Virus record (IMG/VR): IMGVR_UViG_2563366856_000002
Span: 1-35,102 of that record
Direction: 5' to 3' (one strand)
Length of the DNA stretch: 35,102 nucleotides
Source: a virus
Lineage: Duplodnaviria; Heunggongvirae; Uroviricota; Caudoviricetes
A program made the position numbers and the translations under genes. Shown here one piece after another: positions 1-34,808 of the stretch. Within the stretch, counting starts at the first letter, position 1; the number at the start of each line of letters is the position of its first letter. The notes under the pieces were generated by a model. The model was not told the origin of the DNA and did not search any database. It saw nothing but the letters and a program-made list of their open reading frames with translations.

Positions 1-663
1 ATGGTAAATAAAACCTTTGTATGTTTAAGTCATTCTAAGAAAAACAACGATTTTTGTGTTGCCGGAAAGTTGCTCTATGAGGGTGGCATTATAGGTGAAT
101 GGATAAGGCCAATAAACCAATATGGCACAATAACCAGCGAAGATTGTTCTTATTCAGATAACTCATCAGTTCGTACCCTTGATATCATTTCTGCTACTTT
201 TCTAAAACCAACCCCTCAAAAGTTTCAAACTGAAAACCATACCATTGATAGTAAAGTCTATTGGGAAAAAGTAGACGAGTATGAATATACAGACGCCGCA
301 TTATCTTTATTATGCGACACCCCAGATTCATTGTGGGATAATAATAATGAGTCTGGTGGTGGGATCAACGATCAAGTAACTCCTCAAGAAGCCCAAGAAA
401 TTGATGAAAGTTTATATTTTATTTATGTTGGAGAACTAACAATCTATGCATCTAAATGGGGCGATAAATTAAAGCTAAGAGGCGAGTTTGTATATAACGG
501 CACTACTTACAATTTAAAAATCACAGATATTTATTGGTTAGATTATTATGAAAACAAACCATTAGGTACACATATTCATGAGAATGCTTATATCACCATT
601 AGTCTTGCTTTAGATACTTTTGGTGGTTTCCATTATAAACTTATAGCAGACATACTATGTTGA
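1..663 (+). CDS. hypothetical protein, first gene of a three-gene translationally coupled operon
   Basis: 220-aa ORF beginning at window position 1 (true start may lie upstream of the window); its TGA stop overlaps the ATG of the next gene (ATGTTGA at 657-663); visibly AT-rich codon usage; no family recognised by eye. Confidence 0.5.
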   Translation: MVNKTFVCLSHSKKNNDFCVAGKLLYEGGIIGEWIRPINQYGTITSEDCSYSDNSSVRTLDIISATFLKPTPQKFQTENHTIDSKVYWEKVDEYEYTDAALSLLCDTPDSLWDNNNESGGGINDQVTPQEAQEIDESLYFIYVGELTIYASKWGDKLKLRGEFVYNGTTYNLKITDIYWLDYYENKPLGTHIHENAYITISLALDTFGGFHYKLIADILC

Positions 664-1097
664 AGATATACTCAATTGGCTTTACTGAAAAAACTGCTGA
701 AAAATTTTTTACCTTGATTAAGTCGCAGCCAATCAAAACCCTAGTTGATGTCCGGCTAAATAACGTGTCGCAACTTGCTGGTTTTGCTAAAAAGAAGGAC
801 CTCGAATTTTTCCTTCGTGAGTTGTGCGGGGTAGATTACGCCCATGTTCCAGAGCTCGCCCCAACTAAAGAGATACTCGACCCTTATAAAAAAGGTAATG
901 TTTCGTGGGAAGTTTACGAAGATAACTTTCTGAATCTTATGGAAAAAAGGAATATTGAACGTATTGATAAGAGCTTAATCTCTGACGGTTGCTTGTTATG
1001 TAGTGAGCACAAACCCCATCACTGTCATCGTCGTCTTGTGATAGAATATCTGAACAAGCACTGGGATGCAGATTTTGAGGTTAAGCATTTAATATGA
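657..1097 (+). CDS. DUF488-like protein (YeaO-like fold), function unknown
   Basis: 146 aa; N-terminal IYSIGFT...LVDVR motif and C-terminal C-x-E-x-x-P-x-x-CHRRL motif match my recollection of the DUF488 family; start and stop overlap both neighbours. Confidence 0.6.
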   Translation: MLKIYSIGFTEKTAEKFFTLIKSQPIKTLVDVRLNNVSQLAGFAKKKDLEFFLRELCGVDYAHVPELAPTKEILDPYKKGNVSWEVYEDNFLNLMEKRNIERIDKSLISDGCLLCSEHKPHHCHRRLVIEYLNKHWDADFEVKHLI

Positions 1098-1684
1098 TGA
1101 AAGTACTAGTTATGTATCATCCTGATTTTGCTTCAAAGGGTAAGTTTGAGCGAAAGCTTACCCGTATCTTCTCCGAATCGAGTGAATACAAAGTATTTTA
1201 TTTTGAAGATAACCAGAACTTGATACATGACTATTTTTCTTCTGATTTGATTTTTAAACTTGATCCTGACCTTCTTACAGATCCTTATAATCTTGGTTTA
1301 ACGCATGCCGTTGTTTTTGATTCAGCTTTGAAACCTGAGTTCACAACAATTTATGAAACGTTAGCATCACAAATTCCCGTAAGGTATATAAAAGACAAAA
1401 TTACTTTTGTATCCAATAAAGACAGGGGGGAACACTTCGATGTATATTGCGGTCGCGGTACTTTATGGGGTAATCCTTATGCGATTGGAGCAGATGGTGA
1501 TCGTGATGAAGTTATAAGAAAGTTTAAGTATGACTTTGATAGAAATTTTTTAAAAGGGGGAGAGGATTTCAAAGAAAAGCTGAAAGCACATAAAGGAAAA
1601 ATCCTTGGTTGCCATTGCAAACCCTATCCGTGCCACGGAGATGTTCTTGCCAGATTTTTAAACGAATTAGATGATGGTGAGTAA
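1094..1684 (+). CDS. two-domain protein with C-terminal DUF4326-like domain, function unknown
   Basis: 196 aa; C-terminal segment FDVYCGRG..WGNPY...GCHCKPYPCHGDVL resembles the DUF4326 signature as I recall it; ATGA start/stop overlap with upstream gene. Confidence 0.6.
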   Translation: MMKVLVMYHPDFASKGKFERKLTRIFSESSEYKVFYFEDNQNLIHDYFSSDLIFKLDPDLLTDPYNLGLTHAVVFDSALKPEFTTIYETLASQIPVRYIKDKITFVSNKDRGEHFDVYCGRGTLWGNPYAIGADGDRDEVIRKFKYDFDRNFLKGGEDFKEKLKAHKGKILGCHCKPYPCHGDVLARFLNELDDGE

Positions 1685-2018
1685 AGCCACTTCATAGTTG
1701 CTTAAAACTATAAAAGAGATGTAATCTTAAAGAAGTTCACTGATCAAAGATAACCTTGTACCGCCGATACTCCCGTATCCTGCATCCTGTAGTACTGGCG
1801 GTTCTTGCCGCTGCTCTGATGCGATTCGTCATTAATCCTTTTCGAACATTTCCTACCATGATACCAGTATTCTGGTAATGGCCAATGGAGGCTGGTATTT
1901 CATTAGGGAACACCAGAGGATAGAAATTGAATATAACTTCTGCTTCTCAAAACAGACTGTTTGCTTCTTTTTCATGTATGGTGATAAATTTGCGGTGGCG
2001 TAGAGGCGTTTAAAATTT

Positions 2019-3146
2019 TTACAACGCTATCTTGTTCCATCCTTTGCCTCGGTCGTCATGGTATCGATCTGTCTGTCGCTGTGTTTTATGGCCAAGTAGT
2101 TTTTGTGTATCTAACCCCTGTTCTTTGTACAGACGTTCAGATAAAGACCTTTGTTCATGGAATGTGGCAGGTGAACCTTCTCCCCAGTCAATTCCTGCTA
2201 AATCTCTCGCTTTACTAAAATTCATCGTCAATGTATTGGATTTAACTTGTGCGCCACGTTCTGCCTGTGATGTTGCACGGAAAAAATGCACTAAATATGG
2301 GCTAACCGCATAGTCTCGGCAGCGCGCTACAACATCGCGTAAACTCCAGTTAATCGCATTGAGGCGAAGAGAAAGAGGGATAGCGATTTTGCTTCCAGTC
2401 TTTTCCTGAATGACGTGAAGATGATCTTCCCAAATATCACTAAATTTCATTTTGGATATATCTCCCAAACGCTGCCCAGTGACCAAAGCTAGGAGCATGG
2501 CATTTCCCATGTAACGATGATTGGCGTCTGCTATATCGAATATTTTTTGCCATTCTTCCAGGCTGAGGCGTTGACGGGTAATTTTTCTTTTGGGTTGCTT
2601 CGTCGCAAGAGCAGGGTTATACCCTGGCGGAACTTCGCCATAATGCTGTGCTTCCTTAAACACATCGATCAATACAGACCTAACGACTTGGGCCATTCTA
2701 GGCTGTCCAGCTGCAATATACTCATCAAGCAATTGTGCTATATCTCTAACATCAACGGATGAGATCAACTTCATTCCTGCTCGTTCTCTGAGCAAGGATA
2801 CTGGTTTAGCTTTTTGCTTATAGGTGTTGAGTCTTATATCACCACTTTTGAGCCTGTCATCCTGGATCGCTTGATAGCGATCTAACCAGGTTGACGTTGT
2901 GATCGCTTTTCCTTTGCTGGTTGCGATCCTATCACTGATAGCTAGAATCTGCCGGGTTCTTTGCTCAGCCAGACGAGTGTTAGCTTCAGTGGCAATAGCA
3001 ATAGCTTCAGCTTCATTTGTGCCCAACGAATGAAATTTCCCGGTCACTGGATGCTTATATCGCCAATAGACTTTATTTACTTTTCTACTATAAAGCGGAT
3101 ACAAGTTAGGTACTGAAACATTATTTTTACGTGGTCTGGCTGCCAT
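2019..3146 (-). CDS. int: tyrosine site-specific integrase (lambda Int family)
   Basis: 375 aa; C-terminal catalytic region ...LGHKTQRQTDRYHDDRG with conserved R, H-x-x-R and Y; start overlaps xis 3' end as in lambda. Confidence 0.9.
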   Translation of the reverse strand: MAARPRKNNVSVPNLYPLYSRKVNKVYWRYKHPVTGKFHSLGTNEAEAIAIATEANTRLAEQRTRQILAISDRIATSKGKAITTSTWLDRYQAIQDDRLKSGDIRLNTYKQKAKPVSLLRERAGMKLISSVDVRDIAQLLDEYIAAGQPRMAQVVRSVLIDVFKEAQHYGEVPPGYNPALATKQPKRKITRQRLSLEEWQKIFDIADANHRYMGNAMLLALVTGQRLGDISKMKFSDIWEDHLHVIQEKTGSKIAIPLSLRLNAINWSLRDVVARCRDYAVSPYLVHFFRATSQAERGAQVKSNTLTMNFSKARDLAGIDWGEGSPATFHEQRSLSERLYKEQGLDTQKLLGHKTQRQTDRYHDDRGKGWNKIAL

Positions 3147-3387
3147 TGCTTAAAATCCTTTGCAGAATAATAGAATCACTTTTCTTGATTACTGGAGTAA
3201 CTAATTCCCCAACTAACTCTGCGTCCTCACGTACTCGCCAGAGTCGACCTTGTTTCATTGCTGGTGGACAAAATAAATTCTGCTTAGCATAACGACGCAA
3301 TGTGGACACACTTGGAGGATTACTCCTAAATTTTTCCGCAGCCCATTCTTCAAGTGTCAGCATTTGAAGCATTTTTGATAACCTCAT
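3127..3387 (-). CDS. xis: excisionase (lambda Xis-like)
   Basis: 86-aa ORF containing MLTLEEW...PPSVSTLRRYAKQ..FCPPAMKQGRLW, closely resembling lambda Xis (MYLTLQEW...FPPPVKDGREY); true start may be an internal Met (3372 or 3363). Confidence 0.75.
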   Translation of the reverse strand: MRLSKMLQMLTLEEWAAEKFRSNPPSVSTLRRYAKQNLFCPPAMKQGRLWRVREDAELVGELVTPVIKKSDSIILQRILSNGSQTT

Positions 3388-3427
3388 TTCTTTTGCTACA
3401 AAACTATTTCACTAGTTAATTTCGCTG

Positions 3428-3964
3428 TCAGGATTGCTTATGTATCTTATGCAGCTCTTTAAAACGTTCCATAAATATCTCGTAGGCATGGCCAGGAGCC
3501 AGAGGAATAACTTCGAACATCTCTGTTGCCGGGATACCTTCCAATACTGGCCAGAAAGAGCCATCATCAAGCCCGAGATCGCGGCGTTCGGTTGCCAGCA
3601 TGATGAGATCGGCATATTTCACGGGCGTGCTCATAGCCTGAGGTAACCCGTATTTCTCACGGATTACGGCGTCTATTTTTTCTTCCATCCGTTTATAGTC
3701 AGGAAGAAGGCGTTTCAGTGGTGCGGGGATGTCCTGGCAATACGCTTCTGTTGCATCATGCATTAATGCTTCAAAAGCAAATTCCTGCGGTACCAGCATG
3801 CTGCAAAGCACCGCATGTTGGGCGACGCTATAGAAGTGTGAAAGGTGTCCTGCAAAGCGGCAGATATTTGAAAGGGAAACCGCGATATCGTTAATAACGA
3901 TGTCGTCTTTATTTATCCTGTCATAATAAAAATGCTTCCCAGAAAAAGTTTTAATAAATGACAT
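3428..3964 (-). CDS. HD-domain phosphohydrolase (YfbR-like 5'-deoxynucleotidase family)
   Basis: H..HD metal-binding motifs (AGHLSHFYSVAQHAV, MHDATEA); start chosen at Met preceded by GGAGAA RBS (ORF track extends to 3991). Confidence 0.7.
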   Translation of the reverse strand: MSFIKTFSGKHFYYDRINKDDIVINDIAVSLSNICRFAGHLSHFYSVAQHAVLCSMLVPQEFAFEALMHDATEAYCQDIPAPLKRLLPDYKRMEEKIDAVIREKYGLPQAMSTPVKYADLIMLATERRDLGLDDGSFWPVLEGIPATEMFEVIPLAPGHAYEIFMERFKELHKIHKQS

Positions 3965-5060: not shown

Positions 5061-5112
5061 GGTTTGAACGAGTGGCCAAGGAGTGCAAGGATTATCAAAA
5101 AAAGGAGGTTGT

Positions 5113-5661
5113 ATGGAAGACGCGCTTTACGCTTTTAATTACACACAGAACCGGGACAAGTTATTTGCTAACTTGATTAGCATCATTGATGGAATCATTG
5201 CAGATGGAGTTGTCCGTGAAGAGGAGGTTCTTTACTTAGATACATGGTTACTTGAAGCAAAGCAGATTATCAATAATGGAGTTATAAAAAGTCTATCTGC
5301 ACGGGTGTCGGATATTCTTGCGGATGGAATAATCACATCAGAAGAACGTGATGACCTTAAAAATAGCCTTCTCCAAATACAGAGGGAAATTCTTGATATC
5401 CCTGAAATTGATTTTTACTCCAAGGATGTAGATGTCCATTTACTTAATGGACTATGTAAAGGATTAATTGCTGATCGGAACTTAACTCAAGAAGAAATAA
5501 GATATCTTAATTGGTGGCTTGAGCAAAATGGAGCTTTGAAGAACAACTACCCAGGAAAAAAACTTTATGCACTTGTAAAGGAAATTCTTAAAGATGGTGT
5601 TATTACTGAAGATGAGAGTTTAACTCTACATAAGGCATTATGTAGACTTCACAGGATGTGA
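5113..5661 (+). CDS. TerB-like tandem-repeat protein (four ADG-x-[IV]T-x-EE helical repeats)
   Basis: 182 aa from ATG with AGGAGG RBS; four ~40-aa repeats: IIADGVVREEEVLYL / ILADGIITSEERDDL / LIADRNLTQEEIRYL / ILKDGVITEDESLTL, resembling the TerB/DjlA-N motif. Confidence 0.6.
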   Translation: MEDALYAFNYTQNRDKLFANLISIIDGIIADGVVREEEVLYLDTWLLEAKQIINNGVIKSLSARVSDILADGIITSEERDDLKNSLLQIQREILDIPEIDFYSKDVDVHLLNGLCKGLIADRNLTQEEIRYLNWWLEQNGALKNNYPGKKLYALVKEILKDGVITEDESLTLHKALCRLHRM

Positions 5662-5662
5662 C

Positions 5663-6004
5663 TTGGAAAGTGGGGTGGTGGATGGTTTGGCGACCAGGCT
5701 GCCTATTGATGTAGAGGCTTCGATAGAGTTAGAGGGTAAAACCTATTGTCTTACAGGCACTTTTGTTGCAGGAAAGAGAGCCGTAGTTGAAAATTTGATT
5801 AAAAATGCTGGTGGGAACATCAGTAGTGGAATTACTCAAAAGTTGGATTTTTTAGTAATTGGGACGCTTTCCTCCCGTGATTGGAAATTCTCTAGTCACG
5901 GAAGGAAGATCGAAAAGGCTATATCTTATAGAGATGATAATGGTGCAAAACTTAAAATTATTTCTGAAGAAATGCTTTTCGATGCATTACCAAGTTCGCG
6001 ATGA
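5663..6004 (+). CDS. BRCT-domain protein
   Basis: 113 aa; GKTYCLTGTF...R...LIKNAGGNISSGITQKLDFLVIG...KIEKA...KIISEEMLFDAL matches the LigA-type BRCT pattern (GKT.vLTG...G..v..sVskktd.lV.G...gsKl.KA); TTG start 1 nt after upstream stop with AGGA RBS. Confidence 0.65.
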   Translation: MESGVVDGLATRLPIDVEASIELEGKTYCLTGTFVAGKRAVVENLIKNAGGNISSGITQKLDFLVIGTLSSRDWKFSSHGRKIEKAISYRDDNGAKLKIISEEMLFDALPSSR

Positions 6005-12988: not shown

Positions 12989-13873
12989 TTATATTGGGCG
13001 CTTTGAATTCGATTTAAAGCGTCTTCCACTTATTCCAGAAACCCAAATGTCTTCCTCAAGAAAGTCAAGAAGGGCTTTTATTTCTTTTTTTGATGAAGGC
13101 ATGACAATTTTCTCAACACCGCCAACTATTATGGTTTGTAAGGGGAAATTAACTTTAGCAGCTTCGGATTTAAACTTTGACATATTTTGGGGTGTTAGCA
13201 TCCCAGTCTGATTTATTAGTGTTACTTTATTTCTTATCACTGTATCTGCAACGGATTTTAGATCAAAACCTTGGGGAGTAGAAAATACACTAAGTTGACT
13301 AAATGCATTAAGTTCTTGGTCAGTAGCAGCAGAAAAATAGGACGACATGTCAAAAATGCTTCTTAGATTAAAGAAACTCTTAAATCGTATTGTATCATTG
13401 ATAATTATTGCAACTAGTTTATCATCAACATTAAAACCGATGCTATTAGCTTTACTAAAGGTAGTTTTGCTTGCAAAAAGCTTTCCAAAGAATGATTTTG
13501 AGGTATCTAAGATTTGTTTTTTGTTGAAAGTTTGTAGTGCAATAATATTGGGGTTTGCTGGCGCGTCAACACCAACAAATAATGCTTTAATATAACCAAT
13601 ATCAATTTGGCTAGGATCCCAGATAGGCACGGCGGTAGGCCTATTGACTGCGTCAATCAGGCGTGCAGAATCAGTAAAGTTTTGTATTTCAAAACACTCA
13701 CTATGTTTTGGTGTATAACCGGCATAGAATGGTATCATATTGTTATGATGACTTTCAAAATATTGACGCTGTTGTTGGAAAATGGCCGTAACAGAAGTAC
13801 TTGCTGTTGCATCAAGTTCGACTCTAACAATTCTCGTTGCAATTGTATTATCTATTACTGCAAAAAGTGCCAT
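12989..13873 (-). CDS. hypothetical 294-aa protein, second gene of an AT-rich two-gene operon (possible KwaB-like)
   Basis: AT-rich; opposite strand to all flanking phage genes; 5-nt gap to upstream membrane-protein gene. Confidence 0.6.
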   Translation of the reverse strand: MALFAVIDNTIATRIVRVELDATASTSVTAIFQQQRQYFESHHNNMIPFYAGYTPKHSECFEIQNFTDSARLIDAVNRPTAVPIWDPSQIDIGYIKALFVGVDAPANPNIIALQTFNKKQILDTSKSFFGKLFASKTTFSKANSIGFNVDDKLVAIIINDTIRFKSFFNLRSIFDMSSYFSAATDQELNAFSQLSVFSTPQGFDLKSVADTVIRNKVTLINQTGMLTPQNMSKFKSEAAKVNFPLQTIIVGGVEKIVMPSSKKEIKALLDFLEEDIWVSGISGRRFKSNSKRPI

Positions 13874-13878
13874 GGTTA

Positions 13879-14400
13879 TTATCCTTTAACATGTAGAAAT
13901 GTGTAGTCTGTTAATTGAATAACTGTAAATTTGATATCTTTAATATCAGTAATAACTGATTTAGAAATCAATACAAAACCTACGCCGGTGTCATCTTCAG
14001 CTTCGTAAAATTTATAACCGATAAGTGACAATACTGGGTTAAAGTTATAGTTCTCGGAAAAGCTGATGTAAAATAACAATGATAAATAAAAGAATAACGC
14101 ATATGCTTTATTTTCAGCAATAGAATCTGTTCCTAGGAGAGGGAATAAATAGCTTAAGAAATAATTAGTTACTTCTTTGTTAGCGGGAGAAACTGAACTA
14201 ATATTTTTTGTCAGAGGTTCAAGTTGTTTCTCAGCATATTGAATCAGGCCTATTGCTAATAACCAACTTGCTATGCCAACGCATAAGCTATATTGCATCA
14301 GCCAAACCGTATCTTTTACATATCCAATAAAAAATAGAGTTGCGCAAACAGGTGCAATTGAGCTGGCTGTTAATAATAAGCGTGCTAATTTGTTCATCAT
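13879..14400 (-). CDS. integral membrane protein (about 4 TM helices), first gene of the two-gene operon (possible KwaA-like)
   Basis: Hydrophobic segments LARLLLTASSIAPVCATLFFIGYV, VWLMQYSLCVGIASWLLAIGLI, VTNYFLSYLFPLLG, AYALFFYLSLLFYISF. Confidence 0.6.
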   Translation of the reverse strand: MMNKLARLLLTASSIAPVCATLFFIGYVKDTVWLMQYSLCVGIASWLLAIGLIQYAEKQLEPLTKNISSVSPANKEVTNYFLSYLFPLLGTDSIAENKAYALFFYLSLLFYISFSENYNFNPVLSLIGYKFYEAEDDTGVGFVLISKSVITDIKDIKFTVIQLTDYTFLHVKG

Positions 14401-16898: not shown

Positions 16899-17015
16899 AA
16901 TTATCATTACCATGGGTGCATTCACGTAACAGTAGTGTCACTGATATTCAGAGAATGCCTGTGATATTGCTACTGCTATCGGGTAAAATGTAGCCCTTGC
17001 AAATAGGAGGGCAGA

Positions 17016-17318
17016 ATGTCTGAACTGAATTATGAAGCAATAGGCCGCTGCAAAATCCTTAATGAAAAGATCAAAGATCTTCATGCTGAACGAATGAAAG
17101 CTATTGGTGATTTACGTACTGCTGTCTATGCCCTTCATCAGAAAGGGAATGTAAACCTCATCCCACCAGAAATTGTTGAATTCAACCCCCAATCGCTTAC
17201 ATCCCTTGTAGAGAAGGTTGGTCACTATGATGGTGAGCTGATGCGAGCTGTACATGAGTACAACAACTGGTGTGTAGAAGCAGGCGAGAAACCCGTAAAA
17301 CTTATAAAGCTAGACTGA
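17016..17318 (+). CDS. hypothetical 100-aa protein
   Basis: ORF with GGAGG RBS, followed by strong terminator; no family recognised. Confidence 0.5.
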   Translation: MSELNYEAIGRCKILNEKIKDLHAERMKAIGDLRTAVYALHQKGNVNLIPPEIVEFNPQSLTSLVEKVGHYDGELMRAVHEYNNWCVEAGEKPVKLIKLD

Positions 17319-17343
17319 AACAACAAATTTATGCAAATCATTA

Positions 17344-17367
17344 GCCTCGCACATGCGGGGCTTTTTT
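17344..17367 (+). terminator. rho-independent terminator
   Basis: GCCTCGC-acat-GCGGGGC stem-loop followed by TTTTTT. Confidence 0.65.
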
Positions 17368-17403
17368 ATGCGCACCATACATGCACATCAAAGAGAGTCT
17401 TCA

Positions 17404-17754
17404 ATGCCGCCACGAATACCAAAAGCCTGCCGTGTTCGCGGTTGCCGCCATACCACGACTGACCCGTCAGGCTACTGCGAAAGCCACAAAAGCGAAGGCT
17501 GGAAGCAATACAAACCTGGACAATCCCGTCATCAGCGCGGCTACGGTTCGATGTGGGACAGTATCCGCGCGCGTGTCCTGAAGCGTGACAAAGGCCTTTG
17601 TCAGTTATGTCTGCGTGCCGGTGTGGTGCGTGAAGCGAAAACCGTTGACCACATCATCCCTAAAGCGCATGGCGGCACTGATGCCGACCGTAATCTGCAG
17701 AGTCTGTGCTGGCCGTGTCATAAGGCGAAGACGGCCCGTGAACGGTTGAAGTGA
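17404..17754 (+). CDS. HNH endonuclease (terminase-associated)
   Basis: C-x-x-C...C-x-x-C zinc motifs and DHIIPKAHGG...N HNH core; located immediately upstream of terminase small subunit. Confidence 0.8.
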   Translation: MPPRIPKACRVRGCRHTTTDPSGYCESHKSEGWKQYKPGQSRHQRGYGSMWDSIRARVLKRDKGLCQLCLRAGVVREAKTVDHIIPKAHGGTDADRNLQSLCWPCHKAKTARERLK

Positions 17755-17780
17755 TAATAATTCTCAACTGCTTGAGGGGA

Positions 17781-17840
17781 GGGGCGGGTCAAATCCCTGC
17801 GGCCTGACGTCTTCCGGACTGCCCGCCCCATCGTTTTTTT
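17781..17840 (+). other. large GC-rich hairpin with T-run between HNH and terminase genes (candidate cos-region element or terminator)
   Basis: GGGGCGGG (17781-17788) and CCCGCCCC (17822-17829) are reverse complements, followed by TTTTTTT. Confidence 0.35.
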
Positions 17841-17879
17841 ATACCCGCGAAAAATGAAATTTAACCAGGAGTGCCGCAT

Positions 17880-18374
17880 ATGGCTGGAACGGCGGGGCGT
17901 TCCGGGCGTCGCCCCAAGCCAACGGCGCGCAAGGCGCTGGCCGGAAACCCCGGCAAGCGAGCCCTGAATAAAGATGAACCTGTTTTTACGCCCATCAAAG
18001 GTGTTGAGCCACCGGAGTGGTTCGCTGAAGAAGATCTCCCTCTCGCCACGATCATGTGGCAACTGACAACTAAAGAACTCTGCGGTCAGGGCCTGCTGTG
18101 CGTGACTGACCTCGCGGTGCTTGAGCGGTGGTGCGTGGCCTACGAGTTCTGGCGACGTGCCGTGAAAAATATTGCCAGACAGGGCAACACCATCACCGGT
18201 GCAATGGGCGGTATGGTCAAAAATCCGGAGCTGACCGCCAAAAAAGAACAGGAGTCCGAGATGAGCAGTACGGGGGCAATGCTCGGACTCGACCCCAGCA
18301 GCCGCCAGCGTCTGATTGGCCTGGCGGGGCAGAAGAAAGCCACTAACCCGTTTCTGAAAATTATCGAATCATGA
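17880..18374 (+). CDS. terminase small subunit (P27 family-like)
   Basis: ATG with AGGAG RBS; N-terminal basic region [27 protein letters not shown] typical of P27-type small terminase; stop overlaps large-subunit start. Confidence 0.8.
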
Positions 18375-20104
18375 GCCGGAAATCTTACCCCAACGTAAAT
18401 GCTGCCAATCAGTATGCCCGGGATGTCGTGCGCGGAAAGATTGTGGCCTGCCAGTTTGTGATTCAGGCCTGCCAGCGCCATCTTGATGACCTGATGGCGG
18501 AAAAAAGTAAGTCGTTTCGTTACCGCTTCGACAAGGACCTGGCTGAACGGGCCGCCAAATTTATTCAGCTGTTGCCGCACACCAAGGGTGAGTGGGCATT
18601 TAAGAGGATGCCCATCACGCTGGAGCCGTGGCAGCTCTTTGTGATCTGCTGCGCGTTTGGCTGGGTCAATAAAGGCTCCCGGCTGCGCCGCTTCCGTGAG
18701 GTGTATACCGAAATCCCCCGTAAGAACGGCAAATCGGCAATCTCTGCCGGTGTCGCCCTGTATTGTTTTGCCTGTGATAACGAGTTCGGCGCGGAAGTGT
18801 ATTCCGGTGCCACGACGGAAAAACAGGCATGGGAAGTCTTTCGTCCGGCAAGACTGATGTGTAAACGCACACCCATGCTGACGGAAGCGTTCGGGATTGA
18901 GGTTAACGCCTCAAACATGAACCGTCCGGAGGATGGTGCGCGTTTTGAACCGCTGATCGGTAACCCCGGTGATGGTTCATCACCCCACTGTGCGGTGGTG
19001 GATGAATATCACGAGCACGCCACAGATGCGCTTTACACCACGATGCTTACCGGGATGGGGGCGCGACGTCAGCCACTGATGTGGGCTATCACTACCGCCG
19101 GGTACAACATTGAGGGGCCGTGCTACGACAAACGGCGGGAAGTCATCGAGATGCTCAACGGCTCGGTGCCTAACGATGAACTGTTCGGGATCATCTATAC
19201 CGTTGATGAAGGTGACGACTGGACCGACCCGCAGGTGCTGGAAAAAGCCAATCCAAATATTGGCGTGTCGGTTTATCGCGAATTTTTGTTAAGTCAGCAG
19301 CAGCGTGCGAAAAATAACGCCCGTCTGGCAAACGTCTTTAAAACAAAACACCTCAATATCTGGGTGTCGGCGCGTTCGGCGTATTTCAACCTGGTGAGCT
19401 GGCAGAGCTGCGAGGATAAATCACTGACCCTTGAGCAGTTCGAGGGGCAGCCGTGCATTCTGGCCTTTGACCTGGCGCGTAAGCTGGATATGAACAGCAT
19501 GGCGCGACTTTATACCCGCGAGATTGACGGTAAAACGCATTACTACAGTGTGGCCCCGCGTTTCTGGGTACCGTATGACACGGTGTACAGCGTCGAGAAA
19601 AATGAAGATCGACGGACAGCCGAACGCTTTCAGAAATGGGTGGAAATGGGCGTTCTGACCGTTACCGATGGTGCGGAGGTGGATTATCGCTACATCCTCG
19701 AGGAGGCCAAAGCGGCGAACAAAATCAGCCCGGTCAGTGAGTCACCCATCGACCCCTTCGGGGCGACCGGGTTGTCACATGACCTTGCTGATGAAGACCT
19801 GAACCCCATCACTATCATTCAGAACTACACCAACATGTCCGACCCGATGAAAGAGCTGGAAGCGGCAATTGAATCGGGGCGCTTTCATCATGATGGCAAT
19901 CCCATCATGACCTGGTGTATCGGCAACGTGGTCGGCAAAACCATTCCGGGTAACGATGATGTGGTGAAGCCCGTCAAAGAGCAGGCGGAAAACAAAATCG
20001 ATGGTGCAGTTGCGCTGATTATGGCGGTTGGCAGAGCCATGCTGTACGAGAAAGAAGACACGTTGTCTGACCACATTGAGTCCTATGGGATCCGCTCGCT
20101 TTAA
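18371..20104 (+). CDS. terminase large subunit
   Basis: 577 aa; Walker A-like IPRKNGKS, ATPase and C-terminal nuclease region; canonical position. Confidence 0.9.
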
Positions 20105-20115
20105 CTGAGGTAATT

Positions 20116-20298
20116 ATGATCATGCTGATTCTCGCGCCTCTGGTGGGCGTGCTGGGGGCGCTTTTGCTGGCGTATGGTGCCTGGCTGATTTATCCCCCGG
20201 CGGGGTTTGTTGTTGCCGGGGCGTTGTGCCTGTTCTGGTCGTGGCTGGTGGCGCGATATCTTGACCGTACACAGTCGTCTGTCGGCGGAGGTAAATAG
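20116..20298 (+). CDS. small hydrophobic protein (two predicted TM segments)
   Basis: 60 aa, GAGG RBS, packed between terminase and portal with adjacent start/stop. Confidence 0.45.
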
Positions 20299-21539
20299 TG
20301 TTCTTTTCGGGATTATTTCAACGAAAAAGTGACGCACCGATGACCACGCCAGCAGAGCTGGCGGATGCTATCGGGTTGTCCTACGACACCTATACCGGAA
20401 AGCAGATCAGCAGCCAGCGGGCCATGCGACTGACGGCGGTTTTTTCCTGTGTCAGGGTGCTGGCGGAGTCGGTCGGGATGTTGCCCTGCAACCTGTATCA
20501 CCTGAACGGCAGCCTGAAGCAGAGAGCCACTGGCGAACGTCTGCATAAGCTGATCTCCACGCATCCCAATGGCTATATGACGCCGCAGGAGTTCTGGGAG
20601 CTGGTGGTCACCTGTCTGTGCCTGCGGGGAAACTTTTACGCCTACAAAGTGAAAGCATTTGGCGAAGTGGCTGAACTGCTGCCCGTCGATCCCGGCTGTG
20701 TGGTACCGAAGCTTAACAGTAGCTGGGAGCCGATCTATCAGGTCACATTCCCGGATGGCTCCACGGATGTACTGAGCCAGGAGGATATCTGGCATGTGCG
20801 CACGCTGACGCTGGACGGACTGGTGGGGCTGAATCCCATCGCCTATGCCCGCGAGGCAATATCGCTGGCAGCTGCGACCGAAGAGCACGGGGCCAGACTG
20901 TTCAGCAATGGCGCGGTGACGTCGGGTGTGTTGCGTACAGAGCAGACGCTGTCAGATCAGGCTTATGAGCGCCTGAAGAAAGATTTTGAGGAGCGTCACA
21001 CCGGGCTTGGCAATGCTCACCGCCCGATGATCCTTGAGATGGGGCTGGACTGGAAGTCGATGGCGCTGAACGCCGAGGACAGCCAGTTCCTGGAAACCCG
21101 CAAGTTTCAGCTTGAAGAAATCTGTCGTCTGTTCCGGGTGCCGTTGCACATGGTGCAGAACACCGATCGCGCCACCTTCAACAATATCGAAGAGCTGGGG
21201 CTGGGATTTATCAACTATTCACTGGTGCCGTATCTGACCCGCATCGAACAGCGGATCAACACCGGACTGGTACGAAAAAGTAAGCAGGGCGTTTATTACG
21301 CCAAATTTAACGCCGGGGCGTTACTGCGCGGGGATATGAAGTCCCGTTTTGAAGCCTACGCCACCGGGATCAACTGGGGAATTTACTCTCCCAATGACTG
21401 CCGCGACCTGGAAGATATGAATCCGCGTCCCGGTGGTGATGTCTATCTCACACCGATGAACATGACCACGAAACCCTCCGATGGCAGTAAGGCCGGTAAG
21501 CAGAAGGATAACGCCAATGCAGACGAAACAACGTCTTGA
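20298..21539 (+). CDS. portal protein (HK97 family)
   Basis: 413 aa; GTG start with GGAGG RBS; position and length typical; sequence resembles HK97-family portals. Confidence 0.88.
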   Translation: MFFSGLFQRKSDAPMTTPAELADAIGLSYDTYTGKQISSQRAMRLTAVFSCVRVLAESVGMLPCNLYHLNGSLKQRATGERLHKLISTHPNGYMTPQEFWELVVTCLCLRGNFYAYKVKAFGEVAELLPVDPGCVVPKLNSSWEPIYQVTFPDGSTDVLSQEDIWHVRTLTLDGLVGLNPIAYAREAISLAAATEEHGARLFSNGAVTSGVLRTEQTLSDQAYERLKKDFEERHTGLGNAHRPMILEMGLDWKSMALNAEDSQFLETRKFQLEEICRLFRVPLHMVQNTDRATFNNIEELGLGFINYSLVPYLTRIEQRINTGLVRKSKQGVYYAKFNAGALLRGDMKSRFEAYATGINWGIYSPNDCRDLEDMNPRPGGDVYLTPMNMTTKPSDGSKAGKQKDNANADETTS

Positions 21540-22167
21540 TGTACCGCTGAGTCTGAAATCTGTCAGTGACTCCGGTGAGTTTGAAGGGTATGGCTCCGTC
21601 TTTGGTGTAAAGGACAGCCACGATGATGTGGTGATGTCCGGGGCATTTGCTGCTTCCCTGCGGGCGTGGAGTGACAGAAAAGCGTTACCTGCGCTGCTCT
21701 GGCAGCACCGCATGGATGAACCCATCGGTGTTTACACCGAAATGAAGGAAGACGATGTCGGGCTTTACGTCAGGGGACGGTTGCTTATTGATGATGATCC
21801 CCTCGCAAAACGCGCACATGCACATATGAAGGCCGGTTCGTTAACCGGCCTTTCTATTGGGTACGTCCTGAAGGACTGGGAATACGACCGGACGAAAGAA
21901 GCCTTTCTGCTGAAAGAAATCGACCTCTGGGAAGTCAGTCTGGTGACGTTTCCGTCTAACGACGAGGCGCGGATCAGCGACGTCAAGAACGCGCTGGCCC
22001 GCGGGGAAATCCCCGAACAGAAAAAAATCGAAAGAGTCCTGCGTGATGTCGGACTCTCCCGTACCCAGGCCAAAGCATTCATGGCCGGGGGCTATGGCGC
22101 ACTGTCCCTGCGCGACGCTGAGGATGTGGGCTCTGCACTGAATGCACTGAAAAATCTGAACTTCTAA
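21517..22167 (+). CDS. prohead protease (HK97 family, S78)
   Basis: Start at Met with AAGGA RBS; between portal and major capsid; resembles HK97-type maturation protease. Confidence 0.85.
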   Translation: MQTKQRLDVPLSLKSVSDSGEFEGYGSVFGVKDSHDDVVMSGAFAASLRAWSDRKALPALLWQHRMDEPIGVYTEMKEDDVGLYVRGRLLIDDDPLAKRAHAHMKAGSLTGLSIGYVLKDWEYDRTKEAFLLKEIDLWEVSLVTFPSNDEARISDVKNALARGEIPEQKKIERVLRDVGLSRTQAKAFMAGGYGALSLRDAEDVGSALNALKNLNF

Positions 22168-22181
22168 TCAGGAGAAATACG

Positions 22182-23387
22182 ATGGCGGTAGATATTAAAG
22201 ATGTCGAACAGGTCGCGCAGGAGCTGCAGCAGAAGTTTGACGACTTCAAAGCAAAGAACGACAAGCGCGTGGATGCGATTGAGCAGGAAAAAGGCAAACT
22301 TGCCGGGCAGGTGGAAACCCTGAACGGGAAACTCAGCGAGCTGGAAAACCTCAAAAGCGATCTTGAAAAAGAGCTGCTTGAGCTGAAACGTCCGGCAGGT
22401 GGTGCGCAAAATAAACTGGTCACCGAGCATAAAGAAGCGTTTGTGGGCTTCCTGCGTAAAGGCCGTGAAGATGGTCTGCGCGATCTGGAGCGCAAGGCAT
22501 TACAGGTGGGCACCGATGAAGACGGCGGCTATGCCGTGCCGGAAGCACTGGATCGCAACATTCTCACCCTGCTGAAAGATGAAGTGGTGATGCGCCAGGA
22601 AGCCACGGTGATCACCGTTGGTGGTTCCGACTACAAAAAACTGGTGAATCTGGGCGGCACGGCTTCCGGATGGGTTGGCGAGACTGACGCGCGCTCCCAG
22701 ACTGCCACCTCCAGACTGGGGCTGATTGAACCTTTCATGGGGGAAATCTACGGTAACCCGCAGGCCACCCAGAAAATGCTGGATGATGCCTTTTTCAACG
22801 TGGAGGCCTGGATCAACAGCGAGCTGGCAACTGAATTTGCCGAACAGGAAGAAATTGCCTTTACCACCGGCGATGGTACCAAGAAGCCGAAAGGGTTCCT
22901 GGCGTATGAATCCACGGATGAAACCGATAAGGTCCGGGCGTTCGGCAAACTTCAGCATATTGTATCCGGCGACGCGACTGCGGTGACCGCAGACGCCATT
23001 ATCAAACTGATTTACACGCTGCGAAAGGCACACCGCACCGGCGCGAAGTTCATGATGAACAACAACAGCCTGTTTGCCATCCGTTTGCTGAAAGACATCG
23101 AGGGTAACTATCTGTGGCGTCCGGGGCTGGAACTGGGGCAGCCGTCCTCTCTGGCGGGTTACGGTATCGCTGAAAACGAACAGATGCCGGATATCGCCGC
23201 TGATGCGAAAGCCATTGCATTTGGTAACTTCAAACGGGGTTACACCATCGTTGACCGTATCGGCACCCGCATTCTGCGTGACCCGTACACCAATAAACCG
23301 TTTGTCGGTTTTTATACAACCAAGCGCACCGGCGGGATGCTGGTCGATTCGCAGGCCATCAAACTGCTGAAGATTGCTGCGGCGTAA
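22182..23387 (+). CDS. major capsid protein (HK97 family)
   Basis: 401 aa, N-terminal coiled-coil delta/scaffold-like domain then capsid fold region; canonical position. Confidence 0.9.
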   Translation: MAVDIKDVEQVAQELQQKFDDFKAKNDKRVDAIEQEKGKLAGQVETLNGKLSELENLKSDLEKELLELKRPAGGAQNKLVTEHKEAFVGFLRKGREDGLRDLERKALQVGTDEDGGYAVPEALDRNILTLLKDEVVMRQEATVITVGGSDYKKLVNLGGTASGWVGETDARSQTATSRLGLIEPFMGEIYGNPQATQKMLDDAFFNVEAWINSELATEFAEQEEIAFTTGDGTKKPKGFLAYESTDETDKVRAFGKLQHIVSGDATAVTADAIIKLIYTLRKAHRTGAKFMMNNNSLFAIRLLKDIEGNYLWRPGLELGQPSSLAGYGIAENEQMPDIAADAKAIAFGNFKRGYTIVDRIGTRILRDPYTNKPFVGFYTTKRTGGMLVDSQAIKLLKIAAA

Positions 23388-23394
23388 TCATTCA

Positions 23395-23414
23395 GGGGCG
23401 CGGAACCGCGCCCC
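23395..23414 (+). terminator. GC-rich hairpin after major capsid gene (possible partial terminator)
   Basis: GGGGCGCGG-aa-CCGCGCCCC perfect 9-bp palindrome; weak T-tract. Confidence 0.4.
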
Positions 23415-23436
23415 CTGTTCTGACGGGTGAAGAATC

Positions 23437-23637
23437 ATGATCCTGAAACAAGATCTGAAATGGTCACCGGACGGTATGCGTGTTGAGGTCATTCGGGCCG
23501 GTGAGTATGACGACGGGGCGCTTCCTGCCCGGGTGCAGGAGATTGCACTTCAGGCCGGGTTAGCAGAGCGCGGAACCAGTGCAAAAAGCAGTAAAGCGGC
23601 AAAAGAGAAAAAAGCCACGACCAGTAAAGAGGGCTGA
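23437..23637 (+). CDS. hypothetical small protein
   Basis: 66-aa ORF in structural operon; Lys-rich C-terminus. Confidence 0.4.
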   Translation: MILKQDLKWSPDGMRVEVIRAGEYDDGALPARVQEIALQAGLAERGTSAKSSKAAKEKKATTSKEG

Positions 23638-23639
23638 GT

Positions 23640-23963
23640 ATGCTTCTGACAATGGAAGAGATTAAAGCCCAACTCCGGCTGGATGAGGATTTCGATGCTG
23701 ATGACCGCCATCTGCAACTGCTGGCCTGTGCGGCGCAAAAGCGGACGGAAACGTATCTGAACCGGAAGCTCTATGCACCGGATGAAACCATTCCGGACAG
23801 CGATCCGGACGGGCTGCACCTGCCGGATGATATTCGTCTGGGGATGCTGATGCTTATCAGCCATTTTTACGAAAACCGCTCGTCGGTTACGGAAGTGGAG
23901 AAACTCGACATGCCGCAGAGTTTTGGCTGGCTTGTCGGCCCGTACAGGTACTTTCCGCAATGA
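23640..23963 (+). CDS. head-tail connector protein (gp6-like)
   Basis: 107 aa, MLLTMEEIKAQLRLDEDFDADD...resembles phage head-tail connector family. Confidence 0.75.
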   Translation: MLLTMEEIKAQLRLDEDFDADDRHLQLLACAAQKRTETYLNRKLYAPDETIPDSDPDGLHLPDDIRLGMLMLISHFYENRSSVTEVEKLDMPQSFGWLVGPYRYFPQ

Positions 23964-24370
23964 AAATTCGTCAGGCGCAGACCAGCGCAACCTACATTCT
24001 GCCGGACCCCGGTGAACTGAATAAACGCGTCCTGATCCGCCAGCGGGTGGATATGCCCGCGGATTACTTTGGCGTGGAGTCTCAATACCCGGTTACGTTC
24101 CGGACATGGGCGAAGGTTATCCAGACCAGTGCCACCACCTGGCAGGAAACCGCGCAGACCGGGGACGCCATCACCCATTACATCACCATTCGCTACCGCC
24201 GGGGGATCACCGCTGATTATGAGGTGGTCTGCGGTGACAGTGTGTACCGGGTGAAACGTCAGCGCGATCTGAACGGGGCGCGGCGCTTTCTGCTGCTGGA
24301 GTGTACGGAACTGGGCGAATTTACGCAGAGTCACGGAGGCAGCAATGGCGACTCCCTTTTTTCACGTTGA
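23960..24370 (+). CDS. head-tail adaptor / head closure protein
   Basis: LNKRVLIRQR...TFRTWAKV...ITHYITIRYRRGIT pattern resembles head-tail joining family. Confidence 0.6.
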   Translation: MKIRQAQTSATYILPDPGELNKRVLIRQRVDMPADYFGVESQYPVTFRTWAKVIQTSATTWQETAQTGDAITHYITIRYRRGITADYEVVCGDSVYRVKRQRDLNGARRFLLLECTELGEFTQSHGGSNGDSLFSR

Positions 24371-24851
24371 TGTTCAGCAGCCCGCGGAGATGCGCTTTAA
24401 CCGTGCCCGTGTCCGGCGGGCGTTTGTCACGATTGGGCAGCGTCATATGCGTGATGCCCGTCGGCTGGTGATGCGCCGTGCGCGGTCGGCACCGGGTGAA
24501 AACCCCGGTTATCAGACCGGACGCCTGGCTCGTTCGATTGGTTACATGGTGCCGAGAGCCAGTAAAAAGCGAGCCGGTTTTATGACACGCATTGCCCCTA
24601 ACCAGCGCAACGGGAAGGGGAACCGGATGATCTCTGGTGACTTCTATCCGGCGTTTCTGTTTTTTGGTGTCCGGGGAGGAGCAAAGCGTCGTCGCAGCCA
24701 TCATCGTGGTGCATCCGGTGGCAGCGGCTGGCGACTGGCTCCACGTAATAACTTTATGGTGGAAACGCTTGAAAAGAACCGCAGCTGGACACGCTATTTT
24801 CTGGCGCGGGAATTGCGTAAATCACTGAAGCCGGAGCGACGACACAGATGA
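24345..24851 (+). CDS. HK97 gp10-family tail component
   Basis: Arg-rich 168-aa protein with G..P...TG.L..SI motif. Confidence 0.6.
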   Translation: MATPFFHVDVQQPAEMRFNRARVRRAFVTIGQRHMRDARRLVMRRARSAPGENPGYQTGRLARSIGYMVPRASKKRAGFMTRIAPNQRNGKGNRMISGDFYPAFLFFGVRGGAKRRRSHHRGASGGSGWRLAPRNNFMVETLEKNRSWTRYFLARELRKSLKPERRHR

Positions 24852-25408
24852 AACTGACGCCTGTTATTGCTGCACTGCGTGCCCGCTGTCCGTATTTTGA
24901 AAACCGGGTTGCAGGCGCGGCCCAGTTCAAAAATCTGCCGGAGGTCGGAAAGCTGAAACTCCCGGCGGCATATGTTGTACCGGGTGATGATTCTCCGGGA
25001 GAAAACAAAAGCCAGACCGACTACTGGCAGGAGCTGAAAGAGGGTTTCTCCGTGGTTGTCATACTGAGTAACGGGCGTGATGAGCGCGGTCAGTTTGCCT
25101 CGTATGATGTGGTGGACGATGTCCGGCAGATGCTCTTTAAGGCTCTGCTGGGCTGGAACCCGGAGGCGTGCGGTAACCCGATTACCTATGACGGCGGCAC
25201 GCTGCTGGATCTGAATCGTCATGAGCTGATTTATCAGTTCGATTTTTCGGTCATCAGCGAGCTGACTGAAGACGATACCCGCCAGCAGGATGATCTGAAC
25301 AGTCTGGATGAACTGCAAACGCTGGCGATTGATGTTGATTATCTCGAGCCCGGTAACGGGCCTGACGGCGATATCGAACATCACACCGAAATAACCCTTC
25401 CTTCCTGA
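24848..25408 (+). CDS. Mu-like tail protein (DUF1834-like, FluMu gp37-type)
   Basis: Position directly upstream of DUF2635-like and sheath genes; family call from memory. Confidence 0.5.
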   Translation: MKLTPVIAALRARCPYFENRVAGAAQFKNLPEVGKLKLPAAYVVPGDDSPGENKSQTDYWQELKEGFSVVVILSNGRDERGQFASYDVVDDVRQMLFKALLGWNPEACGNPITYDGGTLLDLNRHELIYQFDFSVISELTEDDTRQQDDLNSLDELQTLAIDVDYLEPGNGPDGDIEHHTEITLPS

Positions 25409-25416
25409 GGATCCTC

Positions 25417-25587
25417 ATGTTTGTCAAACCTGTTAAAGGGCGGTCAGTTCCTGACCCTGCCCGCGGCGACCTTTTGCCCGCCGAAGGGCGAAATGTTGAC
25501 GAGAACAACTACTGGCTGCGCCGTGAAGCAGCGGGTGATATCCGGCGCGTGAATAAAAAGGTGAATACCGATGACGATAAGCTTTAA
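25417..25587 (+). CDS. small Mu-like tail protein (DUF2635-like)
   Basis: 56-aa ORF (below ORF-track cutoff) MFVKPVKGRSVPDPARGDLLPAEGRNVDENNYWLRREAAGDIRRV; overlaps sheath start. Confidence 0.55.
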   Translation: MFVKPVKGRSVPDPARGDLLPAEGRNVDENNYWLRREAAGDIRRVNKKVNTDDDKL

Positions 25588-27067: not shown

Positions 27068-27423
27068 TGGCCCGTATCGGGGGAACCTGTTATTTCAAAA
27101 TTGACGGTCAGCAGCTATCGCTGACCGGCGGCATTGAGGTGCCCATGAACAGGACGGTTAATGATGACATCATCGGCCTGGAAGGTTCAGTGGACCGCAA
27201 GGAAACTCACCGTGCGCCTTATGTCAAAGGGACCTTCAAGGTGCCGAAGAATTTTCCGGTGGGCAAAATCACCTCGTCTGATGAGATGACCATCACTGCC
27301 GAGCTGGCGAACGGTCAGGTCTATGTACTGTCGTCTGCCTGGCTGCACGGCGAAGCGAACCATAATGCCGAAGAAGGCACGGTTGATCTTGAGTTCCACG
27401 GTGAAGAAGGGGATTACCAGTGA
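27067..27423 (+). CDS. tail tube protein (Mu gpM-like)
   Basis: 118 aa immediately after sheath. Confidence 0.8.
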   Translation: MARIGGTCYFKIDGQQLSLTGGIEVPMNRTVNDDIIGLEGSVDRKETHRAPYVKGTFKVPKNFPVGKITSSDEMTITAELANGQVYVLSSAWLHGEANHNAEEGTVDLEFHGEEGDYQ

Positions 27424-27743
27424 TTGAGCTTGTACTTAAAAAACCGATCATCGCCCACAAAGAAACACTGCATGTGCTGGAAATACGTGAGCCTACGTAT
27501 GACGAGATTGAGGCGCTGGGGTTCCCTTTCTCTGTTTCGCCTGATGGTGGTATGAAAATGGACAGTCAGGTGGCGCTGAAATATATCCCGCTTCTGGCCG
27601 GGATCCCGCGTTCGTCTGCAGCGCAGATGACGAAGCTGGATATTTTCAAGGCAGGCATGATTGTAATGCGTTTTTTTACCGGCTTGGAGACGGAAGAGAC
27701 CTCAGGAAGCGATTCTACAATGTCGCGTGGTTCTGGAAATTAA
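27420..27743 (+). CDS. tail assembly chaperone (G-like), with -1 frameshift extension to 27835
   Basis: Position between tube and tape measure; slippery heptamer T_TTT_TTT at 27671-27677 in zero frame; -1 frame open from there to TGA at 27833-27835. Confidence 0.65.
   Translation: MIELVLKKPIIAHKETLHVLEIREPTYDEIEALGFPFSVSPDGGMKMDSQVALKYIPLLAGIPRSSAAQMTKLDIFKAGMIVMRFFTGLETEETSGSDSTMSRGSGN
27671..27677 (+). other. slippery heptamer for programmed -1 ribosomal frameshift
   Basis: TTTTTTT with zero-frame codons TTT TTT (X_XXY_YYZ). Confidence 0.55.
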
Positions 27744-27827
27744 ACCCCCTTGAACTTCGCCGGACGGCTATTTCCCACTTTGCTGATCTGGAGGCAGAGG
27801 CCGTCCGTATAAATGAGGAGATGAAGC

Positions 27828-29735: not shown

Positions 29736-29759
29736 CGCAGTCCTTTTTGAGGTCAGTCT

Positions 29760-34805: not shown

Positions 34806-34808
34806 TCC

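Follow-up and report, generated by a model that had tools for sequence, protein, structure and literature searches.

We analysed a 35,102-nucleotide stretch of DNA from a virus of the Caudoviricetes (IMG/VR record IMGVR_UViG_2563366856_000002, positions 1 to 35,102, here called the window) whose first 1,684 bases carry three overlapping genes encoding a dual OB-fold (DuOB) protein, a DUF488-N3a protein and a protein in which a minimal SLOG domain (mSLOG) is fused to the N-terminus of a DUF4326 domain. An earlier sequence-only reading had described these genes, hereafter the triad, as an AT-rich operon of start-to-stop overlapping open reading frames (ORFs). Both overlaps are present. ATGTTGA at 657-663 combines the start codon of gene 2 (ATG 657 or TTG 660) with the stop codon of gene 1 (TGA 661-663), and in ATGATGA at 1094-1100 the start codon of gene 3 (ATG 1094) overlaps the stop codon of gene 2 (TGA 1095-1097), the gene 3 ORF running from 1094 to 1684 on the + strand and encoding 196 amino acids. 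The difference in composition also holds, with a GC content of 36.0 % across 1-1684 (0.339, 0.390 and 0.359 for genes 1, 2 and 3) vs 55.4 % for the structural module at 17000-35102. In 81 distinct triads the distance between genes 1 and 2 ranged from -4 to +18 nucleotides, while genes 2 and 3 overlapped by 4 nucleotides in 32 and by 1 nucleotide in 28 and were never separated by a gap of more than 7 nucleotides, although the start codon nearest to the upstream stop was chosen in each case which biases these distances towards small values. On the strength of their Pfam matches and of tight junctions recurring across triads we take the three ORFs to be real genes and not chance ORFs. Translational coupling of the three genes, whose overlap geometry is conserved, is plausible, whereas the fixed stoichiometry suggested by the sequence-only reading would be conjecture.

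Gene 1 matches the DuOB family PF22557 at 1.2e-53 (182.7 bits vs a cut-off of 27) and the PADLOC model PDC-M45A at 1.7e-53. The possibility raised earlier that it represents only part of a larger gene could be dismissed, as the match covers the full profile (1-210 of 210), DuOB homologues are 217-227 amino acids long and RefSeq gives the same start codon in Escherichia coli SC487. Among 1.84 billion representative proteins scanned, approximately 2,700 DuOB clusters at 50 % identity were recovered, most of them stand-alone proteins of 215-240 amino acids. In some proteins DuOB is fused as the C-terminal part to a complete RecQ helicase (DEAD, Helicase_C, RecQ_Zn, RQC and HRDC), an AAA_13/SMC-like ATPase or an HTH domain, and tandem DuOB proteins also exist. 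The DuOB fold resembles OB proteins that bind single-stranded DNA (ssDNA) or DNA ends, and the multi-OB proteins of this type (RPA, telomere end-binding protein alpha, CST, PriB and SSB) are among the systems closest to it.

Gene 2 is a DUF488 protein as had been proposed (Pfam, 2.9e-25). It matches DUF488-N3a, the 'active' subclade, at 6e-10 (39.9 bits, threshold 27), against 12.6 bits and an E-value of 0.2 for the inactive N3i model, and it matches PADLOC PDC-M45C at 8.3e-68. Thirteen residues were invariant among 24 diverse homologues: D31, R33, N35, S38, Q39, K45, C112, C115, S116, E117, C123, H124 and R125. The gene is sufficiently conserved to be detectable at the DNA level (~69 % identity) across plasmid copies from Acinetobacter and Moraxella. 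In gene 3 the predicted C-terminal DUF4326 domain was recovered by Pfam (3e-22, residues 108-186), and the N-terminal domain which the sequence-only reading had left unassigned is mSLOG (4.7e-16, residues 1-106). Conserved motifs of gene 3 include Y118-x-GRG, WGNP, C173-x-CKP-x-x-CHGD and N190..DD. A KP-x-x-CH...YLN motif is common to the gene 2 and gene 3 enzymes, and comparison of their alignments by hhalign paired 20 columns around it with a probability of 36 %, which does not by itself establish homology. Both enzymes retain putative catalytic residues. None of the three proteins had a match in NCBIfam.

In its fold the SLOG domain of gene 3 is matched by ThsA in complex with 3'cADPR, by YpsA and by LOG-like phosphoribohydrolases, and by inspection the conserved residues of mSLOG do not include the classical LOG motifs. 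Matches to gene 3 in BFVD comprise solo and fused DUF4326 proteins from phages and giant viruses. The best of these is a 212-amino-acid protein of Vibrio phage Vp_R1, annotated only as DUF2493 (SLOG-like), which aligns with nearly all of gene 3 (E-value 2e-12) and is itself probably a SLOG-DUF4326 fusion. Gene 3 ends in an acidic tail, L-D-D-G-E (window 1670-1681), in which D193 and D194 are invariant. Speculatively, this tail may contact DuOB in a manner reminiscent of the acidic tips of SSB that dock on partner OB folds.

The sequence-only reading had treated the three genes as a unit to be sought in other genomes. At 16 of 16 assessable neighbourhoods found through homologues of DuOB or gene 3 (from Morganella, Serratia, Enterobacter, Pseudomonas, a second E. 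coli variant and Aeromonas) the genes for DuOB, DUF488-N3a and mSLOG/DUF4326 occur in that order between unrelated flanks. A wider census, seeded on gene 3, found relatives in 195 of 185,579 GTDB species representatives and on 76 IMG/VR contigs, from which 156 loci were kept. Eighty-four of these were assessable, with gene 3 in full length and sufficient sequence ahead of it, and 70 of the 84 are triads, nine of them with a divergent DuOB that still exceeds the Pfam threshold. Gene 2 is adjacent and DuOB is not in five of the others, and the remaining nine have neither gene 1 nor gene 2, several being visibly decayed and one lying beside GmrSD_N and HEPN genes. A further 66 census loci have no full-length homologue of gene 3; nearly all of them encode short or solo DUF4326 proteins and most are IMG/VR contigs. 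Triads are found in Gamma-, Beta- and Zetaproteobacteria and in Campylobacterota, with representatives from Enterobacterales, Pseudomonas, Methylococcales, Vibrio, Massilia, Duganella, Zetaproteobacteria, Sulfurimonas and Sulfurovum. The three genes thus do occur together in other genomes, with the same gene order in distant taxa and differing flanks. A rearranged version with the order gene 3, gene 1, gene 2 was seen on one IMG/VR contig (L120), and at three loci (L052, L065 and L075) DuOB is encoded on the other strand, at a distance of 0.2-4.4 kb upstream from genes 2 and 3. Searching genome contigs with a profile built from the DuOB alignment gave no confirmed locus. A fourth conserved component was ruled out, the most frequent flanking family being a terminase at 12 of 88 loci, all consistent with one prophage lineage.

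The flanks of the triad vary between prophages, plasmids and genomic islands. A copy from Morganella shares 92.8 % DNA identity with the window's cassette over a stretch that starts ~90 bp before gene 1 and ends at window position 1946, and is unrelated on either side, indicating that the mobile unit is slightly larger than the three genes. The triad or a close variant, with the first gene annotated as hypothetical, is also carried by the 10.1 kb plasmid pApiAE13b of Acinetobacter pittii, which has little beyond replication genes and the cassette, and by a plasmid of Moraxella osloensis, where it lies immediately 3′ of an ssb gene. The triad is therefore a conserved, self-contained and horizontally mobile cassette. 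The 260 bp that follow it in the window (1685-1945, GC 0.41) are co-inherited in E. coli and Morganella, SC487 being the only E. coli to have them, and contain no Rfam match and no convincing terminator. Among 148 proteins flanking the triad at 52 loci approximately 13-15 strongly matched defence proteins, a count made without a matched background control; these comprise CapP, AbiTii, RmrA/RmrT, a CBASS cyclase, ThsB, KwaA, a methyl-directed restriction enzyme and two PDC candidates. Further neighbours elsewhere include DUF4238 and GmrSD_N with HEPN.

The operon had been placed outside the integrase and a presumed attL, and in this respect the sequence-only reading requires correction. A near-identical copy was found in one of 5,426 complete E. 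coli genomes, that of strain SC487 (99.6 % identity over the first 2,020 bases and 99.7 % over window 1-3468), where the order is icd, a hypothetical gene, an integrase fragment, the triad, intE, xisE, further prophage genes, pinE, mcrA and an icd' fragment. A duplicate of the icd 3′ end (216 bp, 91 % identity) closes the element on its other side, so the triad lies within the integrated element. This duplication, which bounds the SC487 element, together with the map of e14 in K-12 rules out a position outside the prophage and assigns the cassette to the slot between icd (attL) and intE, the latter being annotated intE/xisE in matching genomes. The slot holds ymfD, ymfE and lit in the e14 element of K-12, with lit on the + strand and convergent on intE like the triad. 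Homology to the backbones of K-12, A42 and EC06 begins at window 1946-1955, where the Morganella homology stops; the matching point in K-12 is 29 nucleotides past the lit stop codon and the right-hand junction is common within ~10 nucleotides. Lit is a zinc metalloprotease that cleaves EF-Tu, and it shares with the triad the slot, the orientation and the right junction with no relationship in sequence or domains, a likeness of position only. Other strains carry different genes between icd and intE, namely a Sll1717-family P-loop ATPase in A42, a DUF262 NsnA-like protein with a hypothetical protein in RM7190 and Septu PtuA/PtuB with IS1 in EC06. The intE backbone is matched in 3,114 of the 5,426 E. 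coli genomes vs the triad in one. With such variable occupants on a common backbone, e14-type prophages have between icd and intE a hotspot for variable cargo, mostly defence genes, and the expectation that the site is of a type used for defence cargo was borne out by lit, Septu and the DUF262 protein. The coordinates of the cassette and its surroundings are given in Table 1.

Table 1 Features of the three-gene cassette and its right-hand flank (window coordinates)
Feature	Position	Strand	Remarks
Gene 1, DuOB (dual OB-fold) protein	1..663	+	220 amino acids, complete; proposed nucleic-acid recognition/specificity subunit
Gene 2, DUF488-N3a ('active' subclade)	657..1097	+	146 amino acids; proposed Cys-dependent phosphoesterase/phosphotransferase of the rhodanese-phosphatase superfamily
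Gene 3, N-terminal domain, minimal SLOG (mSLOG), residues 1-106	1094..1411	+	Proposed nucleotide/ribose-phosphate binding or N-glycosidase-like activity
Gene 3, C-terminal domain, DUF4326 (residues 108-186) with conserved acidic tail LDDGE and stop codon	1415..1684	+	
Non-coding 3′ flank travelling with the cassette	1685..1945	.	Morganella match ends here
Junction of cargo and e14-type backbone, with spacer to the intE stop codon	1946..2018	.	Start of backbone homology
intE, e14-type integrase, convergent with the operon	2019..3146	-	Context, not part of the system; Arm-DNA-bind_1 2e-37, Phage_integrase 1.2e-17 (Pfam)

As gene 1 begins at the first base of the window its promoter lies beyond it. 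The 60 bp upstream of gene 1, outside the window, contain a conserved TTGCTTT...TCTGATGGTAAT element and a GAGTG Shine-Dalgarno sequence, and the element may be read as a -35 box followed by an extended -10 box, making it a candidate promoter. Consensus scans for promoters and terminators within 1-2100 performed no better than on shuffled sequence and the terminator-like sites were weak. Neither tRNA genes nor Rfam families were found in the window, so a tRNA-type att site and known riboswitches or small RNAs are absent from the cassette.

Several further features of the prophage were observed. Upstream of the cassette in SC487 (L001 11682-11843) lies a 162-bp pseudogene of an integrase 3′ end, sharing 74 % identity with the corresponding part of intE, with a 204-amino-acid hypothetical gene on its other side. 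This pseudogene suggests that a past tandem integration or recombination of two icd-targeting elements brought in the cassette. The window contains a complete Kiwa system on the - strand at 12989-14400, with KwaB at 12989-13873 (PADLOC, 2.3e-150) and KwaA at 13879-14400 (1.9e-83). Both genes lie between a DUF968 gene and the lysis/late region, in another AT-rich island of this prophage (GC 0.34). A BRCT-domain gene beside the CI-like repressor (5083-6004, + strand) is frameshifted into ORFs of 192 and 113 amino acids. E. coli RM7190 has an intact version of 296 amino acids, to which the product of the window's gene is 99 % identical as far as residue 177. The structural module of the prophage is 97-98 % identical to that of phage vB_EcoM-689R6 and the SfII family.

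The triad corresponds to a system that has already been predicted computationally. Burroughs and Aravind reportedly defined a RapZ-C-DUF488-DUF4326 clade in 2023 and predicted DNA-end processing for it in conflict systems, and the families PF22557, PF22565, PF22751 and PF22752 are presumably, to go by their names, the components that these authors defined together as one system. The three proteins of the triad exceed the gathering scores of the dedicated Pfam families, order and linkage are conserved and no difference from the predicted DuOB/DUF488-N3/mSLOG-DUF4326 system was found, so that by its domains, gene order and linkage the triad is a member of that system. RefSeq names its proteins 'dual OB domain-containing', 'DUF488' and 'DUF4326'. 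The correspondence with the PADLOC-DB v2.0.0 entry PDC-M45, a candidate and not a validated defence system, is partial. Components A (gene 1) and C (gene 2) are present while PDC-M45B is not properly matched, being hit only weakly by gene 2 (1.1e-12, positions 5-133 of 204), and gene 3 has no model, from which it follows that either the triad is a sister or variant architecture of PDC-M45 or the PADLOC definition omits the third gene.

Other systems with SLOG or DUF4326 domains were also compared. DUF4326 has been placed in the rhodanese-phosphatase superfamily with a predicted role in processing terminal phosphates on ribose derived from ADP-ribose (ADPr), and viral proteins with SLOG, Macro, NADAR or DUF4326 domains have been proposed to process ADPr derivatives as counter-defence (Iyer, Burroughs et al. 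2022, PMC9503650). ORF83, an anti-Avs protein of LOG/SLOG-like type, has homologues in amoeba viruses that bear a C-terminal DUF4326 domain (bioRxiv 10.1101/2025.06.06.658234). Gene 3 has the two-domain architecture of SLOG and DUF4326 in common with these viral proteins and ORF83 relatives. However, the viral DUF4326 proteins are stand-alone genes of lytic phages and giant viruses unaccompanied by DuOB or DUF488-N3a, whereas the fusion in the window sits in a triad, and no Macro, NADAR or Nudix genes were seen among those triad neighbours for which Pfam families were at hand. The triad is not a member of this viral stand-alone set. Neither is it a Thoeris system. The SLOG domain of gene 3 is much reduced relative to those of ThsA and Bacillus subtilis YpsA and shares only 5-8 % sequence identity with them, and the triad has no conserved TIR (ThsB) partner and no SIR2 or transmembrane effector, a single ThsB having been found among the 148 flanking proteins. 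What the sequence-only reading said of function, that none could be stated for the three genes, stands as regards experiments but not as regards computation, since predictions exist for the families (PMC9503650). While the type of system has thus been described by computation, what is new here is its context, namely its presence in the lit slot of e14, a Kiwa system in the same prophage, a hypervariable DuOB and the RecQ fusions.

This hypervariability is pronounced. Across distinct triad proteins the median identity to the copy in the window is 31 % for DuOB (minimum 16 %), 65 % for DUF488-N3a and 45 % for gene 3, and a cassette from Enterobacter differs from that of the window chiefly in gene 1 (51 % identity, vs 94 % for gene 2 and 91 % for gene 3). 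Ratios of nonsynonymous to synonymous substitution (dN/dS) relative to the Morganella cassette are 0.45, 0.14 and 0.06 for genes 1, 2 and 3. In conflict systems, hypervariability of a binding subunit whose partner enzymes are conserved usually marks it as the specificity or sensor component, and DuOB, which evolves much faster than both enzymes, fits this pattern. We consider it probable that DuOB is the sensor or recognition subunit of the triad.

We could place the triad in a cargo hotspot of a mobile element and near defence families, a location typical of defence genes in general although judged here with no formal background control, and a role in defence is quite probable. The reading of the whole that we favour, which we put close to but short of an even chance, is that of a mobile three-gene module most likely conferring anti-phage superinfection exclusion from the lysogen through recognition of DNA ends or ssDNA and processing of terminal sugar-phosphates. 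DuOB, as a rapidly diversifying recognition subunit, would bind ssDNA, DNA ends or an intermediate of phage replication or packaging, and would recruit or license two conserved Cys/His/Arg enzymes, both from the rhodanese-phosphatase superfamily, namely the stand-alone DUF488-N3a and, within gene 3, DUF4326. mSLOG would bind or deglycosylate a nucleotide or ribose-phosphate moiety, and the two enzymes and mSLOG would together chemically process terminal sugar-phosphates on the invading nucleic acid, leaving ends or nicks unfit for ligation, replication or packaging. We rate the effector step of this proposal, DNA-end chemistry, as somewhat less likely than not, well below the defence role. In its most far-reaching form, which we regard as rather doubtful, the triad would represent a new class of immunity in which a hypervariable dual-OB sensor guides two cysteine-dependent enzymes of the rhodanese/phosphatase fold and mSLOG, for base removal or nucleotide binding, to invading DNA for an unprecedented edit of its termini. 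Terminal phosphates might for example be stripped or transferred, or a terminal base excised to yield an unligatable sugar-phosphate end, and circularisation, replication or packaging would be blocked, amounting to restriction by sabotage of ends and not by cleavage.

A number of observations weigh against superinfection exclusion by end processing. Gene 3 matches no PADLOC model, nor do ten of its diverse homologues, and no PDB structure related to any of the three proteins was found by sequence and profile searches. Literature searches found no experiment showing protection, DNA binding or catalysis by the triad and no experimental work on DUF4326 with DUF488, on DuOB/mSLOG or on PDC-M45, with unrelated 'Duo...' terms crowding the results for DuOB/mSLOG. 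Lytic phages and giant viruses commonly encode DUF4326, alone or fused to SLOG, and the role proposed for it there is counter-defence, and DuOB itself is widespread and found in other architectures, as its many clusters and fusions attest. Being seeded on gene 3, the census covers loci that contain this gene and does not bear on how often DuOB occurs apart from its partners, and the number of defence genes among the neighbours has no matched background with which to be compared. Rapid evolution of DuOB could moreover reflect relaxed constraint or module swapping and not an arms race.

The fold of gene 3 also allows a defence based on the metabolism of nucleotides or NAD derivatives, ending in abortive infection. 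DuOB would then sense phage ssDNA or protein, mSLOG would bind or cleave NAD+, ADPr or a nucleoside monophosphate-like nucleotide, and the two phosphatase-like domains would convert this nucleotide with depletion of an essential metabolite or production of a toxic one. Such a role would suit the structural matches of SLOG to ThsA with 3'cADPR, YpsA and LOG-like phosphoribohydrolases, the predicted action of DUF4326 on ribose phosphates derived from ADPr (PMC9503650) and the occupation of a slot that elsewhere holds Lit, an abortive-infection protease. We nevertheless judge it unlikely, given that the triad has no conserved neighbour able to generate a signal (TIR, cyclase or similar), that the fusion partners of DuOB are DNA enzymes and that the classical LOG motifs were not apparent on inspection of the conserved residues of mSLOG. 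A somewhat smaller probability attaches to phage counter-defence, with SLOG-DUF4326 and DUF488 destroying ADPr-derived or nucleotide immune signals or toxins of the host, such as those of Thoeris- or Avs-type systems. The many phages and giant viruses with solo or fused DUF4326 proteins, including the Vibrio phage that gave the best BFVD match, the ADPr-derivative processing proposed for such proteins (PMC9503650) and the DUF4326-bearing relatives of ORF83 all point in this direction. DuOB however was absent from 50,697 deposited phage genomes searched by tblastn, which favours host defence over counter-defence, and in the same genomes DUF488-N3a had only distant matches (25 % identity) in seven Gordonia phages. 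The full triad is present in islands and plasmids that are not phages, beside defence genes, and the neighbours with Pfam assignments include no Macro, NADAR or Nudix gene.

Least probable in our estimation is a module that serves addiction, stabilisation or the repair of nucleic acids and does not act on phages directly, for example by healing DNA or RNA ends after attack by competing toxins or by maintaining mobile elements in a toxin-antitoxin-like manner. The small Acinetobacter plasmid with its few genes would be an apt carrier for such a module, the three genes are tightly coupled, and the predicted phosphatase-like chemistry may be likened to that of end-healing enzymes. Its distribution is sporadic however (one of 5,426 E. 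coli genomes and 195 matches among 185,579 species representatives), the cassette occupies defence hotspots, and no small antitoxin-like partner or regulator is conserved with it.

If the triad is a defence system as we propose, this would be the first function for DuOB, DUF488-N3a and mSLOG-DUF4326, families with neither experimental characterisation nor a solved structure, and would probably entail new enzymology of the rhodanese-phosphatase superfamily on nucleic-acid termini or nucleotide derivatives. The copy in the window is well suited to testing, being self-contained, 1.7 kb in length and derived from an Escherichia-type prophage, and DuOB variants paired with near-identical enzymes (51 % vs 94 % and 91 %, as in the Enterobacter cassette) offer natural material for specificity swaps. 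The icd-intE slot of e14-type prophages is documented here as a hotspot of defence cargo, occupied in different strains by Lit, Septu, a DUF262 protein, a Sll1717 ATPase or the triad.

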